DNA of 64,000 nt. Source: a virus (lineage: Duplodnaviria > Caudoviricetes). Every line of letters begins with the position of its first letter. The stretch's first letter is position 1. The stretch lies in IMG/VR virus record IMGVR_UViG_3300044961_000667. One strand, 5' to 3'. Positions 10,567-19,005 of the stretch are shown piece by piece. The notes under the pieces are model-generated. The model made no database searches, had not been told where the DNA came from, and saw only the letters and a list, made by a program, of their open reading frames with translations. A program made the translations under genes and the position numbers.

Positions 10567-11600
10567 CGCGGGAACTCCTGGATCTGAAGCTCGGCCGGCC
10601 ACTCAGCCGGAACGGCACCGTGGTGCTCCTTGAAGAGCACCGAGAAGTACGTCGGCTGGTCCTTCAACGCCTTGCCGTGCATCGGGCCCATGCGCCCGCA
10701 CAGATCGGAGTCGACGTTGCTGATCGGGTTGTCGCCCATCTGCTTCACGAAGGGCGTCACCTTCGCGGCCCTGCACTGCTCGACGATGGAGCGCGCCCAC
10801 GAGAGATCGAACGCTCTCGCCTTCGAGCCGCTCTCGCCACCGACGATGACCCAGTGCAGGCCCTGGCCCATCTTCACGTTCGGCACGAACTGGGCGGTCT
10901 TGTCCGCGCACGACGCGCAGAAGCTCTCGCTCTGCTTCGCCGTGGTGTTCGCCGCCTTCCAGTCGTACGCGCACTTCGAGCACTTCCACAGCTGCCCGAG
11001 CCACTTCGACAGGTCCAGCGGTCCCAGCAAGGGCTCGCACGACAGGAACCGCACCGCCGCGGGGACCGACAGCAGCAGCGGGATCCGGACGTCGGCAGCC
11101 TCCTGGTTCTCCACCGTCGTCCCGAGCCACACGTTGGGCGGCGGCGTTCCATCGACCCACGCCTGCAGCCAGTCGACGGTCTCCATCGGCACATCAGGAG
11201 TCCTGACGAACGCGTCGATCGCAGCCGACAGGTGGCGCTTGATGTTCTGCGGCCTCTTCGTCAACAAGAGCCAGTCCAGGTTGGGCGTGCTCCTGATCAG
11301 GTGGAACAGCTCCAGCCTCCACACGTCGGAGACTTCCTCGTCGAACACGTCGGAGAGGGACGAGCAGAAGACCCTGGGCCTCGTGCCGGCGAGCTTCGCC
11401 TTGCGATCCCACGACAACGGCTTCCGCCAGTTCGACGCGACCGTCCTTCTCCGCGGCGCTCCCTTGCCCCAGTTGCCGCCGTCGAACCGCTTGTTCCGCG
11501 TCTCGGCGTAGCAGTTCGTGCACCCGGCCGAGACCTTCGTGCACCCCTCCCATCCGTTGAACGTGGCATCGCACCAACTGATCGCAGTCGTGTCACCCAT
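10563..11600 (-). CDS. DUF5131 / phage Gp37Gp68 family (radical-SAM-like) protein
   Basis: TAISWCDATFNGWEGCTKVSAGCTNCYAE, VFCSSLSDVF, LLLTKRP, RFLSCEPLLG, WVIVGGESG, FVKQMG. Confidence 0.9.
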   Translation of the reverse strand: MGDTTAISWCDATFNGWEGCTKVSAGCTNCYAETRNKRFDGGNWGKGAPRRRTVASNWRKPLSWDRKAKLAGTRPRVFCSSLSDVFDEEVSDVWRLELFHLIRSTPNLDWLLLTKRPQNIKRHLSAAIDAFVRTPDVPMETVDWLQAWVDGTPPPNVWLGTTVENQEAADVRIPLLLSVPAAVRFLSCEPLLGPLDLSKWLGQLWKCSKCAYDWKAANTTAKQSESFCASCADKTAQFVPNVKMGQGLHWVIVGGESGSKARAFDLSWARSIVEQCRAAKVTPFVKQMGDNPISNVDSDLCGRMGPMHGKALKDQPTYFSVLFKEHHGAVPAEWPAELQIQEFPR

Positions 11601-12984
11601 GCAGTTTCTCCATCCTGGTTTTCAAGTCCTCGTACCGCGCCATCCATCGGGCTCGCGTTTGCCGCCAGTCGGGCCACTCCGAGACATCCAGGCCGGGCAC
11701 CTGCTGACCGGTGCCCTGCCACTTCTCGGGACGCTCCTCGATCGGGAACATCACCGTCGCCTCGGTGCCGAACACGTCCATGTCGGCCGTCTTCACGACG
11801 CCATTCATCGGCCATCGGAAGCGGAACTGCTGCGCCAGCGCGTTCATCAGCTTGTCTTCGAGCGGCGCGTACAGCGGCTTGAGCAACATCTTCACCGGAC
11901 TCGGGATGTCCTTCAGCCCGAGCCCCTCGGAGGCGTCGTGGAAGAGGCCGTCCCACGCGCACAGAAGACGCTCCACCTCATCCTTGCCGGCGAGCTGCTC
12001 CGCCCACAGGCTGACGTTGATCGAATGCTGCGCCACTGAGTTGTGGGCCCCGAACCCATCGGCGAAATACGTCCTCGTTGACGTCTCCATTGCGACTACC
12101 GGACCTGGCGAAAGCTCCTCCGCCGCCACAACCTCTAACGTCTCGATGCTCGGAAACTCAAAGGGCGCCGACCCGGCCTTCAGCGCCGTCTGCAACTTCT
12201 GCATGAGACGCACCGGCTTGATGGTCCCAAACAGCCGAAAGACCTCACGCCACCCGCCAAGGACTCGCAGATTCATCACACCAGTCTTCTTGGACTTCGG
12301 GTCGATGCGACAAGCAAATCCGGCCTGTCGAAGAAGACCGCTGGCCGCGTCGAGAACAACACCCGGCTTCTGAGCAAATCCAGTTGTCGTGCCACGCGAC
12401 CTGGACCCGGTCGTAACATGACCCTCCCCGTCAAAGATTCCAGCAAGGTATCCGGTCTCGTAGGTACGAACCGTCTTCCATGGAGTAGCAAATCTCAGCA
12501 TGTGAACCCGAAGCCCACCAAGCACAGCGTCGGCTATCTGCCTGGCCGTTCTCCACCTTTGGTTTCTCGACTGCCGCATGGCGATAAGCCATGGGTGCTC
12601 CACCGACGTCGTAAGACTCGCTCCATCAGACAGCCACAGCCTCACCCTCGGTCGGATGATGATCTCGTGACGGAGAACGTTCGCCAAACGAAGACGACGA
12701 CGCGGCTTTGGTCCTCTTCGTTTCGTCGGGAACTCATCGAAAGCAATCAGCCCAGCCCCTGTAGACAGGTCTCCAGCTGGAACCCACCCGAAATCAGAAG
12801 TCAGAACCAACGACTCCGGAGACACACAGTACGGGTACGGCGCCTGCCCTCCGTACCGGGGCTCGATCGACAACCCGTGAGCGATCTGCTCCGCAGTGAA
12901 CTCCCCCGGCCTCGGGTCCGCGGGGAAGAACATCCCCGAGTTGAGCAACTGGCACCACGGACCTCTCGAACCCTGAAGCGGCAT
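11593..12984 (-). CDS. HD-domain 5'-deoxynucleotidase (YfbR-like) containing an intein
   Basis: IAHGLSIEPRYGGQ...Y/SVAQHS...GLFHDASEG...DIPSPVK...KTADM. Confidence 0.85.
   Translation of the reverse strand: MPLQGSRGPWCQLLNSGMFFPADPRPGEFTAEQIAHGLSIEPRYGGQAPYPYCVSPESLVLTSDFGWVPAGDLSTGAGLIAFDEFPTKRRGPKPRRRLRLANVLRHEIIIRPRVRLWLSDGASLTTSVEHPWLIAMRQSRNQRWRTARQIADAVLGGLRVHMLRFATPWKTVRTYETGYLAGIFDGEGHVTTGSRSRGTTTGFAQKPGVVLDAASGLLRQAGFACRIDPKSKKTGVMNLRVLGGWREVFRLFGTIKPVRLMQKLQTALKAGSAPFEFPSIETLEVVAAEELSPGPVVAMETSTRTYFADGFGAHNSVAQHSINVSLWAEQLAGKDEVERLLCAWDGLFHDASEGLGLKDIPSPVKMLLKPLYAPLEDKLMNALAQQFRFRWPMNGVVKTADMDVFGTEATVMFPIEERPEKWQGTGQQVPGLDVSEWPDWRQTRARWMARYEDLKTRMEKLHG
12040..12828 (-). mobile_element. 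intein (263 aa) with LAGLIDADG endonuclease
   Basis: Starts CVSPESLVLT, contains YLAGIFDGEG, ends VVAMETSTRTYFADGFGAHN, followed by Ser. Confidence 0.9.
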
Positions 12985-13579: not shown

Positions 13580-15374
13580 TCAGGCCCTACGCCCTTCTCC
13601 TGGGAACAGGATGTCGCTGGCCCTCATGGTGGCGTGGTGCTCTTCATCGATGAGGCCAGCGCGGCGGAGTGACGACAGGTAGTCGGCGAACGTTCCACCC
13701 GACACCTCCATCTCAACCATCTCGGCGAGTTCCTCTCGCGTCATCCAGCTCGGGTACGACGCGACCAGCACGTTCAGCATCTTCCTCGCGCCAGCCTTCA
13801 GGTTCCGGCTCCACATGCTCACCAGCTCGTGAGTCGAGGCCGGCGCCGATCGGGCCGCGGGTCCCAGGAACTGCATCCCGGACGCGGAGATCTTCAGCGA
13901 CTGAGCGTTCTCCTCCACCAACCCAGCCCGACGGAGCGCCGAGAGGTAGTCGGCGAACGTCCCGCCCGACACCGCCATGCCAACCAGGGTGGCCAGCTGC
14001 GGCCTGGTGGTCCACGCGCCCGGTCGCGCCGAGAGAGCGATCAACATCTCCTTCGCCCCCTTCTTGATCGTCACGTCGCCGATCGCCTGCGGTCCCGGCC
14101 GCGCGTACTGCGCGAGAGCCTTCTTCACCGACTCCGGCAATAGACGAGGCTCCGGTGCGCGGGGGCATCGGGTTGTGCGGCGGGTAGAGCCCCGGTCCGA
14201 TCACCTCATGGGGGTTGAAGGCCGGCATCGCCGGTTCGACGTGAGGGCGACCGATTGAACGTGCAATCGATTGCGCAGCATCCTTCGTGTCGGCAGCCGC
14301 ACCGGCCAGCTTCTCCGCCGCCTTCTCCAGACGCTTCAGCTGCTTTTCGGTCAACACCGGAACCTCCTTCACGACTTCCTTGATCTGCACCTTCGTTTCG
14401 GTCGGCCGACTCTTCAGCTCGCCTTCCAGCTGAAGAATGCGACGCTTCAGGAAGTCGGGGTCTGCCTTCTCGGCGTCCTCCACCATCGACTTCAACGACT
14501 CACGCAGCTTGGCGACGTCCACCGCGGCCAGCCTCTTCGGCTCGACGAACTCCTCGCCGAACTCCGGCGTGGCCGACGAGTCGAACGTCAGCTTCCGGTT
14601 CACCTTCACCGTCCGCGACACCTTCAGAAACGACGGGCTCCACAGGTGCGCCATCCCCGTGTCGAGCCCTGGCAGGGTGTCAACCAGACTCAGTTCTTCC
14701 GCCTTCGTCACCTTGTCGCTGACCCACGCGATGATCGCCTTCTTCTCGTGGCTGCCGATCGTGCGGTGAGCGAGCACTGTCCCTGCCTGGTTCAACACCC
14801 GCTTGTGCACCGCCTGCGGCTGCTGAGTGATCAAGGACCAGCCGACGCCGTAGTTGCGCCCGAGCTTCAACAGCCGCTCAACTCGGTTGAGCATGACGCC
14901 TTCGTCCTTCTCGGGCGTCTGAGGGGCGAACGTCTGCGCTTCCTCCCAGAAGACGTGCACCGGCGACTTCGACTTCTTCTTGGCCTGGAAGAACGCCTCG
15001 GCGAAGTCTCGAACGAACCGCTTCGTCTCCGCCGTGGTGAACTCCGACACGTCGAGCACCGCGGAGATCTGCTTCTCCACGAGCACGCTGGCCATCAGCC
15101 CGCCCTACTCTGGCGTGAGCGGCAGATCGCCATGCTCCCCGCCAAAGACTGTGATCGCGAACCCATCCTTCTTGCCGTCCGCAGAGCTTCGCAGCCCCCA
15201 CCAGACGCCCACGGGATCAAGAGCGCCAACCTGCGCCCCGACCTCCAGCATCAGCTCGGCCAACTTGGTCGCGGAGTACGTCTTGCCGCCGCCGCTTTGC
15301 CCCAGGAAGGCGAACTTCTGCGTCACAGCTGCCAGCGGCAGCCCCAACCCATCTGCAAACGCGAGCGTCTTCAT
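13580..15374 (-). pseudogene. HerA/DUF87-like ATPase with C-terminal winged-helix repeats, broken by an in-frame TAG and a frameshift
   Basis: GQSGGGKTY, LDPVGVWWGL, VFWEEAQTFAP, GRNYGVG, ITQQPQ; TAG at 15105-15107; frame change near the G5 run at 14161-14165; two SGGTFADYLS.LRRAGL repeats. Confidence 0.75.
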
Positions 15375-15380
15375 CGAACC

Positions 15381-15584
15381 TCAGGTGGCGCCGTTCTCGT
15401 AGTAGCAGCCTTGGCCCTTCGACCACGTCCTGTTGAGCCCGGCCTCGGCGAGGATCCTCTTGACACAACTCGGCGAGAGACGGAATCGCTCAGCGAGCCT
15501 CGACACTGACAGCTCCTCGTCCTTGCTTGCGACCATGACGATCCTGTCGACCAAAAGCTCCCTCTCTGCCTTGCGAAGACCCAT
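15381..15584 (-). CDS. small HTH DNA-binding protein
   Basis: LSVSRLAERFRLSPSCVKRIL; first gene after a promoter. Confidence 0.6.
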   Translation of the reverse strand: MGLRKAERELLVDRIVMVASKDEELSVSRLAERFRLSPSCVKRILAEAGLNRTWSKGQGCYYENGAT

Positions 15585-15681
15585 GCGTTGAACCCTCCGT
15601 GCGCGGCGCGCGTCACGGAGAGGACAACGGAACTAACTACTTTGTCAAGAGGAGCACACACAGTCTCCTGACAAAACAGCC

Positions 15682-17043
15682 TCAGTTGAGGATGTCGGAG
15701 AGCCGGGCGGCGGGCGGCGTGGTGCCGCGCTCCACCAGCGACATCACGATCGTCGACCACATCTCCTCGATCACCTTCTGGTGCTCGATCGTGGCGTCGC
15801 CAGACTTGCTGCGCTCGTGAGCCATCTCGTGAACGAGCGTCTCCAGCGTGTCCTTCACGGTCTTCAGCATCTGACGACCGACCAGGATGTGCTCGTTCTC
15901 GCGCAGCCCGTGCAGCGACGGGTCCTTGAACTCCGCGATGCGGAACCGGCTGAGCGGCACGTCCGGCGCCCCGAGCGAGGCGAGAGCGAACGCCTTGAGG
16001 AACACATCGCTTTCCTCGGTCGTCAGGTCGCTGACGCCGAAGGTCGCCGAGATCAGGTTCTTCGAGTCCGACTTCACCGTGTTGATGGTGCCGGTCTCCT
16101 CCTTGAGCACCTCCAACATGGCCTCAGGGACGACGATGCCGCGCTTCCCGTAGAATGCAGCCTCCTCCATCTCCTGCGGCTGACGGACCGGGATCGCGTT
16201 CTCACCGAACGTCTCCCGGAAGCGGGCGGCCATCTTCTCGCGGAGCTTGTTGCCGGTGTTCCACGTGTACCGGAGGTGCTCGACGTCGGGCTTGTTCTCG
16301 CGCATCAGGCGGTCGACCATCTCGATCAGATCCGGCCGCAAATCGACGGCCTCGTTCCAGATGGTCGCGGTCACGTTCGAGAGATCCCAGCCGTCGATGA
16401 GCCGGCGGTCGCGGTCGATCTTCGCCACGTTGGGCGGCAGGTCGTAGCCGCAGACGTAGTTGCCCACCTGCTGGACGAAGATGCCGCCCACGTAGATGTG
16501 CCCACGCTTCGACTCGTCGAAGATCACCGCGCCCTTGCTCGTGGCCACCGTGTCAGTCGCCGCCAGCAGGAACAGCAGCTTCCGCTGCAGCGACTCCCAG
16601 TCGGCCGGCTCGACGTCAGCCACCTCGATCTCGATGGCGTTGCGCTCCTTCACGACGCCCTTCTGCACGTCGATGACGAGCACCATCTCGCCGCCGAACT
16701 TCTCCGAAGGGGCGACCTCGGGCACCCACTTGTCGGCGCCAGTGCGGATCACCGTGCGATGCCCACTGTTCACCAGCGCCAGCAACGCCAGCTTGTAGCC
16801 CTCGCCGAAGCGGCCGAGCTGGTCGGTGCGACCCCGCTTGGACGTGTACCCGACGAGCAACGTCCGCGGCTCCAGCGTGGCCCCCTTGGTCACCAAGCGG
16901 ACCATCTTGTCCTTCTCGACGTAGGTGACGGAGAACTCGTGCCCGTCCTTCTTGGCATCGAGGCCGTTCTGCATCAGCTCGCGGATCGCCTCCCAAAGGG
17001 ACCAATCAACGTAGTTCTTGCCAATGGTCATTTCGATTTTCAT
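15682..17043 (-). CDS. GHKL-type ATPase (MPN635-like) with C-terminal HEXXH
   Basis: EAIRELMQNGLD, GYTSKR, GRFGEGYKLA, TLVHEMAHE; true start 17043 in an ATGA overlap. Confidence 0.75.
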   Translation of the reverse strand: MKIEMTIGKNYVDWSLWEAIRELMQNGLDAKKDGHEFSVTYVEKDKMVRLVTKGATLEPRTLLVGYTSKRGRTDQLGRFGEGYKLALLALVNSGHRTVIRTGADKWVPEVAPSEKFGGEMVLVIDVQKGVVKERNAIEIEVADVEPADWESLQRKLLFLLAATDTVATSKGAVIFDESKRGHIYVGGIFVQQVGNYVCGYDLPPNVAKIDRDRRLIDGWDLSNVTATIWNEAVDLRPDLIEMVDRLMRENKPDVEHLRYTWNTGNKLREKMAARFRETFGENAIPVRQPQEMEEAAFYGKRGIVVPEAMLEVLKEETGTINTVKSDSKNLISATFGVSDLTTEESDVFLKAFALASLGAPDVPLSRFRIAEFKDPSLHGLRENEHILVGRQMLKTVKDTLETLVHEMAHERSKSGDATIEHQKVIEEMWSTIVMSLVERGTTPPAARLSDILN

Positions 17044-17651
17044 CTTCGTCCTCTCTTGTTCAGCCCGCGCACGCGAGCCATCAGGTCCTTCACTTGAAGC
17101 CGCAACAACGGAACACCATCTTCGAGACGAGTCCGACAGAACCCAAGAACGATGCTGGCAACATCTCGCTTCACCACCAACAGATTGCCTACCGCCGACA
17201 AGAATCCACCAACCTCCTGCGCCGTGTGGAGCTGCCAAACGAAGCAGTCTCGTTGCTTCTTCTTCTTGTTGGGCCTGAACCCGATCGTCCCGACACCCAC
17301 AAGGGCGACTAGCTCCTCCTGCATACATCTTGTGGCGCTCGCCACGCTGACCCTCGGATTGACCCAGCGCTCGCCGTGCTTACCCAGTCCGACGTATCCC
17401 TCCCCGTCCACGATTCCGGCCACCCACCCGAGCTTCTCTTTCGGAAGCCCACGCAAGCGACTTTCAAGTTCGGCCCAAGCGCGCTGTCGAACTCCGTTCC
17501 GAAGTCCTCTGACGATGAGCCAGAAAGCGCTCTCGCTGCACTTGAACCGTGAAACGATCTCGCCGTGATGGACGCCAGACTCGTAGAGCCGTCGGATTTC
17601 TGACTTCTGCTCCTCCGTCAGCCTGGTCTGGAAACCTTTGCTGTTTCCCAT
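17040..17651 (-). mobile_element. free-standing LAGLIDADG homing endonuclease with N-terminal HTH
   Basis: WVAGIVDGEGYV; HTH-like LTEEQKSEIRRLYESG; AT-richer codons; TTGAC upstream. Confidence 0.85.
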
Positions 17652-17680
17652 GTCTCAGACTAGCACAAAAGTCAACAGAT

Positions 17681-17752
17681 TCAATTGCTTGCGCCCTCCC
17701 ACAGGCCCCAGTCCACGTAGTTCTTCGCCACCGACAACTCGATCTTCGCCAT
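17681..17752 (-). pseudogene. orphaned original 5' end of the GHKL ATPase gene
   Basis: RBS + MAKIELSVAKNYVDWGLWEGASN*, versus MKIEMTIGKNYVDWSLWEA at 17043. Confidence 0.85.
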
Positions 17753-17812
17753 CTTCGTCTCCTCCTCACATCGCGTTTCAATCGTTCACCGGCGGGAACC
17801 GCCAGCGGTACT

Positions 17813-18853
17813 TCAGAAGGGAATCTCCTCCTCCGACATCTGGCTCAACGTCGCCGCCGCTTCCTCCCGCGGCTTGCTCTCAACCGGCTTGACCGGCGCC
17901 GCCTGGGCAACCAGCCCCAGCCGCTTGAAGATGTCCTCGATGATCTCGACCTGCCGCGCCGTCAGCGGCTTCGACTGGGTCTTGAACTCCTGGAGCATGT
18001 CCTTCTGCTTCACCGAGAGCCGCCCGCTGCCGAGCAGCGCCACCAACTTCTCCTTCGGGCCCGCCACCTGCGCCACCGCCGCCGTCGGCTTGGCTCCGAG
18101 GTAACGCTGCTCCAGCTCGGTCACGATCTCCAACTGCTTCGGAGAGAGGCTGCCACGGTCACCCAGCTGAACTGCGAAGCTCTCCACCATGTCGGCTGCC
18201 TTCGCCGTCATCTTCCCCGTGGCCTGGAGAAGCGCATTCATCCGATTGAGGAGATCCGGACCCGACTCGTCCATGTCCCGCTCTTCCTTCGAGAGAACTC
18301 GTTCGGCGATGGGCGCCTTCTTCGTCGCCTCCGCCTCCAAGGCATCCCAGTCGGTTTCGGCAATCATCCCCGTCGCCACCTCGATCTGCTTCACGGTGAG
18401 CCGGCGACCCTGCTTCAGCTGGGCCAGGATGGAACTGGCGAACCGATGCCACGGCCGAAGAGTGACGTACCGTTCGAGCATCGTCGGGAGCGTCTTCTTC
18501 GCCTCCTCCTGCTGCCTGGCGATGAAGTCCTTCGCCATGCGCTTCCACTCTGCCTTCGAGGTCTCCTTCTTCTTCGACTCGATCTCCGCCGCCGTCATCT
18601 GACGACCGAGCTGGCGCTCGAAGTCCGCCTGCATCTGCGTCCAGTACGCCTCCGACCAGCTGGCCTGCACCAGCGTTGGTCCGCAGGTGCTGCCGACCGG
18701 GCGCGTCGCCTCCCGATCGTCCAGCGGGTGCACGTGGTACTCGTACCTGAGAGGGGAGCCGCAGATGCTGCACCGACCGCTCATGCTGCCGAGGTCAGTG
18801 ACTGATTCGATCGTCCAGCGCCCCTGCTTCGCCAGCTTGCTGATTGCGTCCAT
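17813..18853 (-). CDS. hypothetical protein with N-terminal zinc finger
   Basis: CSICG...YEYHV...VGSTC; repeated LSxKQ.E helices. Confidence 0.7.
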   Translation of the reverse strand: MDAISKLAKQGRWTIESVTDLGSMSGRCSICGSPLRYEYHVHPLDDREATRPVGSTCGPTLVQASWSEAYWTQMQADFERQLGRQMTAAEIESKKKETSKAEWKRMAKDFIARQQEEAKKTLPTMLERYVTLRPWHRFASSILAQLKQGRRLTVKQIEVATGMIAETDWDALEAEATKKAPIAERVLSKEERDMDESGPDLLNRMNALLQATGKMTAKAADMVESFAVQLGDRGSLSPKQLEIVTELEQRYLGAKPTAAVAQVAGPKEKLVALLGSGRLSVKQKDMLQEFKTQSKPLTARQVEIIEDIFKRLGLVAQAAPVKPVESKPREEAAATLSQMSEEEIPF

Positions 18854-19005
18854 CGTTCCTCTCCTTGGTCCCCCTGGGTTGGGGGAGGCGGTTGGTGTGA
18901 TTCTAGAGTGACACCGGTCTTAGGTTTCGTCAAGAGGCGTGCGACGGGCCATGTCTTTTTCGTTGGAATCTTGACAAAGCACACAATGACGGGGACTCTT
19001 GCTTC

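Follow-up and report, generated by a model that had tools for sequence, protein, structure and literature searches.

How can a homing endonuclease gene lie inside the conserved coding sequence of another gene, with neither an intron nor an intein around it, and leave that gene intact? The question is raised by a locus on a 64,000-nt stretch of DNA (the window) from a virus of the Duplodnaviria; Caudoviricetes (IMG/VR record IMGVR_UViG_3300044961_000667). Here an open reading frame (ORF) for a putative endonuclease with a helix-turn-helix (HTH) domain and a LAGLIDADG core interrupts a gene for a predicted GHKL ATPase after its twentieth codon, and the ATPase frame starts afresh at the end of the endonuclease gene. 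We consider it likely that a free-standing LAGLIDADG cassette, from a family faithful to a site just upstream of GHKL ATPase genes, arrived recently, and that one-sided repair brought in the gene start of a donor and left the native start as a stub.

Empty and filled alleles of the ATPase gene

A first-pass annotation of the window, made by a model from its letters, had placed the insertion inside a conserved coding motif and had proposed that endonuclease-free alleles be found in related phages and used to map the junction. Six such loci (L005-L010) bear this out, placing both junctions in codon 21 (GTT) of the ATPase gene. In these loci a gene for a 346-aa protein is followed directly by the ATPase gene, with no endonuclease between them, and the flanks are 99.2-99.9% identical to the window on both sides (blastn; at least six samples). 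The empty allele reads ...TGGGAGGGCG-TT-CGCGAGCTG... and the window ...TGGGAGGGCG-[708 nt, 17691..16984]-CGCGAGCTG..., the cassette standing in place of the TT that forms the last two bases of native codon 21. The native part of the stub (17752..17692) shows zero differences from any of the six loci, and on the right-hand side the nearest single-nucleotide polymorphism (SNP) lies at least 266 nt away in all of them and 824 nt away in three. The insert is sharply bounded, with no flanking conversion tract. The ATPase of the empty allele (P0018, a member of the 90%-identity cluster of the ATPase) has 454 aa, starts MAKIELSVAKNYVDWGLWEGVRELMQNG and is identical to the window protein after residue 21; at least seven contigs encode it, from different samples and none from the window's own.

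The uninterrupted form is also seen in contigs from the DNA run X5 and from the RNA-library runs X9 and X16, which skip from 16983 to 17692 with AA (plus strand) between. Since this joined form is found in DNA and carries SNPs of the empty-allele lineages, splicing did not produce it; it is an allele. The filled allele is present on three separately assembled contigs (one Logan, two JGI), with L011 and L012 100% identical to the window, and in run X1, from an endonuclease-positive sample, single contigs run through each junction and extend for hundreds of bases to either side. A chimera assembled from two phage strains would mimic such a structure, and it could be said in favor of this explanation that all endonuclease-positive contigs may come from one sample set. 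The separate assemblies and the single contigs across each junction speak against it, as does an insert whose protein is complete, folds well in the model and has many homologues encoded at the same site, and we regard an assembly artifact as very improbable. All finds of the filled allele come from a single hot-spring/microbial-mat sample set. The empty one turned up in metagenomes of about a dozen further studies, among them bioreactor, wastewater, activated-sludge, soil and freshwater samples, and in some RNA libraries. A search of an annotated phage collection gave only matches of ~100 nt, to Pseudomonas phages. The cassette was recently acquired by the window's lineage.

Anatomy of the cassette

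All elements of the cassette sit on the minus strand (Table 1), among them the 23-codon stub starting at 17752, the spacer with its TTGAC and the HTH-LAGLIDADG ORF that the first-pass annotation had named. The stub is made up of native codons 1-20 and base 1 of codon 21, followed by three insert-derived codons and a TGA, and it agrees with the N-terminal consensus of the ATPase family. The native ribosome-binding site (RBS) now serves this stub alone. Also as first described, the stop codon of the endonuclease (TGA, 17042..17040) overlaps the second ATPase start (ATG, 17043..17041) as ATGA at 17043..17040, and GACGAAG stands directly before both ATGs, at 17752 and 17043. The two copies of the gene start give a local alignment score of 48 over ~65 nt, compared with 13-16 for four related loci that have no stub.

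A clear Shine-Dalgarno sequence is absent from the spacer, and a sigma-70 promoter scan found none within the cassette, spacer included. The endonuclease ATG lacks a good Shine-Dalgarno sequence. Translation of the stub ends 30 nt before this ATG, and reinitiation by ribosomes recruited at the strong native RBS is plausible. The stub would be a 23-codon leftover whose translation may supply ribosomes to the endonuclease start.

Table 1. Positions of the cassette parts, of the neighboring genes discussed in the text and of other mobile elements. Coordinates refer to the window unless a locus is named.
Feature	Position	Strand	Remarks
Native RBS region of the ATPase gene	17753..17770	-	GAGGAGGAGACGAAG before the ATG; strong; same in endonuclease-free L005-L010
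Stub ORF, 23 codons	17752..17681	-	MAKIELSVAKNYVDWGLWEGASN, then stop; ATG at 17752
Inserted cassette, 708 nt	17691..16984	-	Spacer, endonuclease gene and 20 foreign ATPase codons; defined by blastn against L005-L010
Spacer, 29 nt	17680..17652	-	AT-rich (41% GC), TTGAC inside; upstream of the endonuclease start
Free-standing endonuclease gene, 203 aa	17651..17040	-	Motif LGWVAGIVDGEGYV; N-terminal HTH and LAGLIDADG core
Foreign ATPase start, 20 codons	16984..17043	-	MKIEMTIGKNYVDWSLWEAI; preceded by GAGAGGA inside the endonuclease 3' end
Working GHKL ATPase gene (predicted), 453 aa	15682..17043	-	Begins MKIEMTIGKNYVDWSLWEAIRELMQNG; resident sequence from 16983 downstream
Second cassette	L100 1408-2365	-	~1.3-1.9 kb beyond the window's high end; stub, HNH_3/AP2 nuclease gene, rebuilt start
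HTH gene, 67 aa	15584..15381	-	Between the GHKL ATPase and HerA-like genes; AT-richer spacer with TTGACA before it
HerA-like ATPase gene	15374..13713	-	597 aa and intact in six of six endonuclease-free relatives
Intein, 263 aa	12828..12041	-	Within ORF 12984..11593
Single-motif LAGLIDADG gene	L006 4179-4675		WWVTGIIDGEGCL; no HTH; window equivalent ~19085, where it is absent

The rebuilt start of the ATPase gene

The two copies of the gene start differ in composition as had been claimed for them, the second being AT-richer and resembling the endonuclease. At third codon positions the stub and the ATPase body have GC contents of 1.00 and 0.94, the rebuilt start and the endonuclease gene 0.71 and 0.69, and the insert as a whole has ~57% GC compared with 63.4% for the window. 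By composition, the insert, rebuilt start included, appears to be foreign relative to the resident genes.

The first-pass annotation spoke of a recoded N-terminus. The insert indeed brings its own start and RBS and foreign codons, but the changes are not purely synonymous: relative to the native start there are seven substitutions (L>M, S>T, V>I, A>G, G>S, G>A, V>I) and the loss of one codon (Ala2), besides five synonymous changes, and the DNA is ~78% identical. The foreign start retains all of the invariant or near-invariant residues of the family (E4, Y11, W14, L16 and E18). Because there are amino-acid changes and a codon deletion while all conserved positions are kept, this start is best read as the ordinary diverged start of a related donor-phage ATPase, copied together with the endonuclease, and not as a purpose-built synonymous recoding. 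The ATPase gene is intact. As in other carriers, its translation presumably begins at the ATG within the overlap with the endonuclease stop codon, and the repeat, being diverged, should resist deletion by recombination.

Absence of splicing elements

A self-splicing intron, of group I or another kind, would join the 17752 start to the gene body in the RNA, and an in-frame join is formally possible (...AGC AAU/AUC CGC..., where the 5' site follows a U and the 3' site a G). However, an Rfam scan of 15000-19000 at E<=10 gave noise-level snoRNA and miRNA matches and nothing intron-like, the RNA fold of 16960-17790 (831 nt) was no better than that of shuffled sequences (z = +0.42), and the non-coding part of the insert amounts to 29 nt only. 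An intron would also leave unexplained the second complete start with its own RBS, its exact removal would leave a 2-nt deletion, and at six homologous loci an upstream exon is missing altogether. We therefore reject an intron, which seems to us scarcely credible.

Inteins have Cys, Ser or Thr at the N-terminal junction and His-Asn plus Cys, Ser or Thr at the C-terminal junction. An intein was likewise rejected for the cassette, since a stop codon closes the stub and the endonuclease ORF, which opens with a separate start codon, is not joined in frame to the host gene. The earlier description of a non-splicing element, with no room for a ribozyme and no intein motifs, is sustained on each of these counts. 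The window does hold a true intein, which offers a contrast (Table 1). It runs from CVSPES through GYLAGIFDGEGHV to GAHN/S, with one LAGLIDADG motif, in a host gene encoding ~200 aa, and an intein-free allele (APYPY/SVAQHS) is present in L005-L009, 99% identical on both sides.

The encoded proteins

A structural model of the 453-aa protein, built with 13 homologues, has a mean predicted local distance difference test score (pLDDT) of 86.9, and its Foldseek matches are Hsp90, TRAP1 and MORC2 (E ~4e-8, probability 1.0). The motifs of the ATPase family are conserved, namely RELMQNGLDA in the N-box and GRFGEGYK (GxFGEGYK) in the ATP-lid. On the strength of this structural match and these motifs, the protein is predicted to be a GHKL ATPase with a Bergerat fold, similar to Hsp90 and MORC. 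It also matches phrog_6077 at 3e-63; in Pfam it gave sub-threshold matches only (HATPase_c_3, E 0.09). In the model, residues 2-8 form a strand and residues 16-32 the N-box helix, so that the segment replaced by the cassette would be a structural part of the ATP-binding domain. Members of this phage family (phrog_6077) also share a conserved HExxH-type motif near the C-terminus, VHEMAHE (HEMAH), at residues ~400-412 of the ATPase protein P0001. A weak Pfam match of this region to SprT-like proteins (E 0.14) was obtained, which suggests a fused metalloprotease-like domain at the C-terminus.

The model of the 203-aa protein, built with 19 homologues, has a pLDDT of 92.2, and its best matches in the Protein Data Bank (PDB) are I-CreI, I-CvuI and I-MsoI (E 1e-7; template modeling score 0.70). 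Each of the top 50 PDB matches by Foldseek is a LAGLIDADG enzyme, with I-CreI in first place (E 1.3e-7). A three-helix HTH occupies about residues 13-46, and the core carries a single motif, VAGIVDGEG, with an alpha-beta-beta-alpha-beta-beta-alpha fold in the AlphaFold2 (AF2) model; D82, E84 and G85 are invariant among 20 aligned homologues. The protein matches phrog_5046 at 7e-11, and in Pfam only LAGLIDADG_3, below the cut-off (E 0.15). From the model, we predict a single-motif, homodimer-type LAGLIDADG enzyme of the I-CreI type, joined to an HTH domain. A word-index protein search returned the query alone; an exhaustive HMMER search returned 946 relatives at E<=1e-3, ~25 of them with the full 200-aa architecture.

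The usual place of the endonuclease family

The endonuclease lies directly upstream of a GHKL ATPase homologue in seven of the eight contexts checked (the window and six of seven loci that encode its closest full-length homologues), L015 being the sole checked homologue with a different neighbor. In L013/L014 the endonuclease is 48% identical to that of the window and shows the same ATGA overlap, with an ATPase homologue that starts MKIPLTIKEDYCVNWDLFCGVREFMQNG. In L016 (39-42% identity, alignment/HMMER) a 28-nt gap precedes an ATPase homologue starting MKIELTIKTSYLPAWGAYEGLRELI, and in L017 (42%) and L018 (43%) the genes overlap by 8 nt, the ATPase homologues starting MARIALTIDPTYCASWGWWEGIREVIQNA and MTKIPLTIDKNYCSSWSVWSGLRELLQNA, respectively. 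The endonucleases of L020 (46%) and L021/L022 (39%) also stand directly before an ATPase homologue. The ATPases next to these endonucleases are 28-38% identical to that of the window, and no stub of a native start was found upstream of the six other endonuclease-ATPase pairs. ATPase homologues without an endonuclease exist in both syntenic and non-syntenic phages (L019, L001).

Taken from gene order, these enzymes form a site-faithful family of free-standing homing endonucleases whose usual place is intergenic, just before the ATPase gene and often overlapping its start. This fidelity to one site is the main addition to what the first-pass annotation had seen. Because the normal home of the family is intergenic and upstream of the ATPase, the in-gene position in the window is probably a scar of one-sided repair. 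Several hallmarks of a free-standing homing endonuclease are found here: a separate ORF, a presence/absence polymorphism, a recurrent target gene and 20 co-transferred foreign codons. The enzyme would be expected to cut the empty allele and to spare its own, an expectation drawn solely from the fact that both junctions fall at codon 21.

One could suppose instead that the endonuclease-like protein has been domesticated as a partner or regulator of the ATPase and is retained for that function, with the HTH and the translational coupling serving this role. The tight, overlapping gene pair is kept across very divergent phages, and an N-terminal HTH domain would suit a regulator. Yet the protein is missing from 99%-identical phages with an intact ATPase and from beside other ATPase homologues (L001, L019), its insertion left a broken gene start, its catalytic LAGLIDADG residues are conserved and its composition is foreign, all of which makes domestication improbable in our judgment.

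A second cassette with the same layout

The layout recurs close by. The second cassette (Table 1) begins with a 14-codon stub, MSKLCPLCGSPLFV followed by a stop, after which comes the gene for an HNH_3/AP2 endonuclease of 160 aa (1476-1958), whose stop codon overlaps the start of a gene for a 135-aa protein beginning MAQKCPLCGSVLWGGG. Two members of the same protein cluster, P0172 and P0174, begin MSKLCPLCGSPLWGGG, like the stub (judged from protein starts), and P0172 is encoded on the same 123.7-kb contig as an empty ATPase allele. These two proteins differ from the 135-aa protein of the window phage at about ten positions, up to residue 75, and the foreign tract of ~75 codons therefore looks like a long co-conversion tract. 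A second lineage (L102-L104) has the same order of stub, nuclease gene and rebuilt start, with a cassette that is 84-87% identical. Since the HNH-AP2 layout is shared by two lineages that are only this similar, stubbed cassettes persist and probably spread. The HNH-AP2 case supports an origin of rebuilt starts by co-conversion, and it makes it more likely that the layout reflects a general strategy and not one accident.

This second case bears on the stronger reading of the first-pass annotation, which fits the same anatomy: that stub, endonuclease and rebuilt start together are the regular transmissible form of the element, homing as a unit with the stub and the upstream DNA as its left homology arm, the diverged start having been selected to block both re-cleavage and repeat-mediated deletion. 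The HNH-AP2 cassette has kept its stub in both lineages (MSKLCPLCGSPLFV with its stop in one, ...PLCV and a stop in the other), and the sharp junctions of the LAGLIDADG cassette, without a conversion tract, suit precise copying. Against this, six other family members occupy the same ATPase site without a stub, the cassette is known in one lineage only, and the amino-acid changes of the rebuilt start resemble ordinary, untargeted divergence. We treat such a transmissible form as possible but rather doubtful.

A further free-standing LAGLIDADG gene of single-motif type was observed in one relative only (L006; Table 1). It directly follows a small PolX-like gene, overlapping the end of that gene with its start, and the last ~10 codons of the PolX gene are altered (I>L, T>S, an extra D and synonymous changes). 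These changes form a short co-conversion tract at the 3' end of the PolX gene.

A proposed origin of the locus

Based on these analyses we can outline how a one-sided repair event may have produced the locus. LAGLIDADG enzymes recognize specific sites of ~20 bp and leave 4-nt 3' overhangs. Enzymes of this family presumably cut endonuclease-free alleles in the conserved DNA that encodes the beginning of the ATP-binding helix (WGLWEG-V-RELMQNG). In the window's lineage the cut would have been made at or beside GCG-TT-CGC, in the DNA coding for WEG-V-RELMQNG; we place it at codon 21 because both junctions coincide there and neither flank is converted. The break would then have been repaired from a donor phage carrying an ATPase of the same subfamily. 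The right end may have paired with the conserved RELMQNG-coding stretch CGCGAGCTGATGCAGAACGG, which could prime repair even on a diverged donor because it is so conserved (the distant L013 allele matches it at 20/22 bases). From there, synthesis would have run leftwards through the first 20 codons of the donor gene, the endonuclease gene and ~40 nt of upstream leader. The upstream neighbors of the other carrier phages differ from that of the window, and if the neighbor in the donor also differed there would have been no homology for the left end, which would have been joined illegitimately, the native start being kept as a stub. The product would be the arrangement now seen, with native stub, spacer, endonuclease, foreign gene start and native gene body in this order. 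With no intact target at either junction, the new allele should be immune to cutting, and the cassette could from now on home as a unit, the stub supplying the homology arm on the left.

Several points weigh against this origin. The break ends lost no more than 2 nt, a cleaner outcome than the extensive resection that usually goes with double-strand-break repair in phages. Pseudo-palindromy, the sign of a homodimer target, reaches 5/11 pairs at the presumed site against a background of 3.1 +/- 1.5, which is not significant. The donor was not recovered: the exact 42-nt string of the rebuilt start and a fully degenerate back-translation of KNYVDWSLWEAIRE each had 0 matches in viral contigs, the same degenerate pattern had 0 matches in a set of metagenome contigs that seems to lack the window's own lineage as well, and scans of both viral and metagenome contigs found no donor allele starting MKIEMTIGKNYVDWSLWEAI. 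A single endonuclease-positive lineage is known, its copies 100% identical and maybe from one sample set, and spread of the cassette has not been observed. The start codon used and the lack of splicing are, for the endonuclease-positive phage, read from sequence. Finally, the neighboring HerA-like gene is broken in the endonuclease-positive lineage, and the phage or the module may be decaying.

The break in the HerA-like gene consists of a TCG>TAG change, which stops the frame after 89 codons, and a 1-nt insertion that shifts it (differences at 15106 and 14165). The split gene calls recur in the separately assembled L011 and L012, and in this lineage the gene is probably a pseudogene. Between it and the GHKL ATPase gene lies a small HTH gene (Table 1). 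We considered whether this 67-aa ORF might be a decayed endonuclease and rejected the idea, as it is conserved in all endonuclease-free relatives and is therefore a resident gene. The GHKL ATPase, the small HTH protein and the HerA-like ATPase may form one module.

Comparison with known systems

The closest described system is found in fungal mitochondria. A mobile endonuclease ORF in atp6 of Allomyces macrogynus was reportedly described by Paquin and colleagues in 1994. In gene hybrids formed by such mobile ORFs (mORFs), in atp6, atp9, cox2 and nad3 of Glomus and atp6 of Allomyces, the endonuclease ORF and a foreign copy of the C-terminus displace the native C-terminus (PMC3630166). As in the window, an endonuclease ORF has entered a coding gene with no intron or intein around it and has carried along a diverged version of the end that it displaces; the native end remains alongside and is identical to the allele of close relatives, and the gene is intact. 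The mORFs replace a C-terminus and are often fused in frame, whereas the window cassette replaces an N-terminus together with its RBS, has a separate endonuclease ORF that overlaps the rebuilt start, and resides in a bacteriophage; it resembles the mORF class in how it works but falls outside that class as first described. The window locus is in this sense the N-terminal mirror image of the mORF hybrids, in a phage.

Among phage systems, the T4 enzymes SegF, SegG, SegB and MobE share with the window a free-standing ORF next to a conserved target, a presence/absence polymorphism and co-conversion of the flank (PMC2988022). They differ in being GIY-YIG or HNH enzymes encoded between genes, with no stub and rebuilt start described, whereas the window has an HTH and I-CreI-type LAGLIDADG enzyme encoded inside a coding sequence. 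In the "genes in pieces" (nrdA with mobE in Aeh1, T4 gene 39/60 with mobA, gene 43 of phage 25; PMC2988022), an endonuclease likewise lies in a conserved coding region without splicing and function is retained; there, however, both halves are translated and reassemble as subunits, whereas in the window the upstream piece is redundant, since the cassette carries a complete substitute for it. For the T4 td intron, experiments have demonstrated homing that relies on homology at one side only, the other side being joined through microhomology (Parker, Belisle and Belfort, 1999, as summarized in PMC2988022). By that summary, the repair route is the same as the one proposed here, in an engineered case that includes an intron; the window is a natural, intron-free case in which the gene would still work. 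I-CreI, I-MsoI and I-CvuI share with the window enzyme the single-motif core and the conserved acidic residue of the motif, but they reside in group I introns of organelle rRNA genes, lack an N-terminal HTH and have ~22% sequence identity to it. We found no description of a phage stub with a rebuilt gene start in the literature searched, which covered few subscription-journal papers and is not proof of absence.

Implications

The window and its relatives provide a clean natural pair of filled and empty alleles in which a homing endonuclease occupies a conserved coding site and the gene survives by means of an imported start. The finding joins three things known separately: intronless homing in phages, one-sided repair in the laboratory and the mORF hybrids known since 1994. 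For annotation, and for the phylogenies of chimeric genes, it matters that short orphan ORFs beside phage nuclease genes can be displaced gene ends. The site-faithful HTH-LAGLIDADG family is newly defined and has a predictable target, the N-box-coding DNA of phage GHKL ATPases, and it could enlarge the stock of meganuclease scaffolds.

Beyond this locus, unrelated families of phage nucleases (LAGLIDADG and HNH-AP2) might share a general form of "replace-what-you-break" cassette, which carries a diverged version of the segment it displaces, with start and RBS. We see this as a fair question with a slightly less than even prospect of a positive answer. If it is true, it would add a third way of living inside genes, besides introns and inteins on the one hand and intergenic sites on the other: cassettes would invade conserved coding or RNA-gene sequence unspliced, immunize the new allele and leave a stub as a homology arm, and the phage in the window would offer a hotspot in which to follow the process, an empty allele being at hand for every site.

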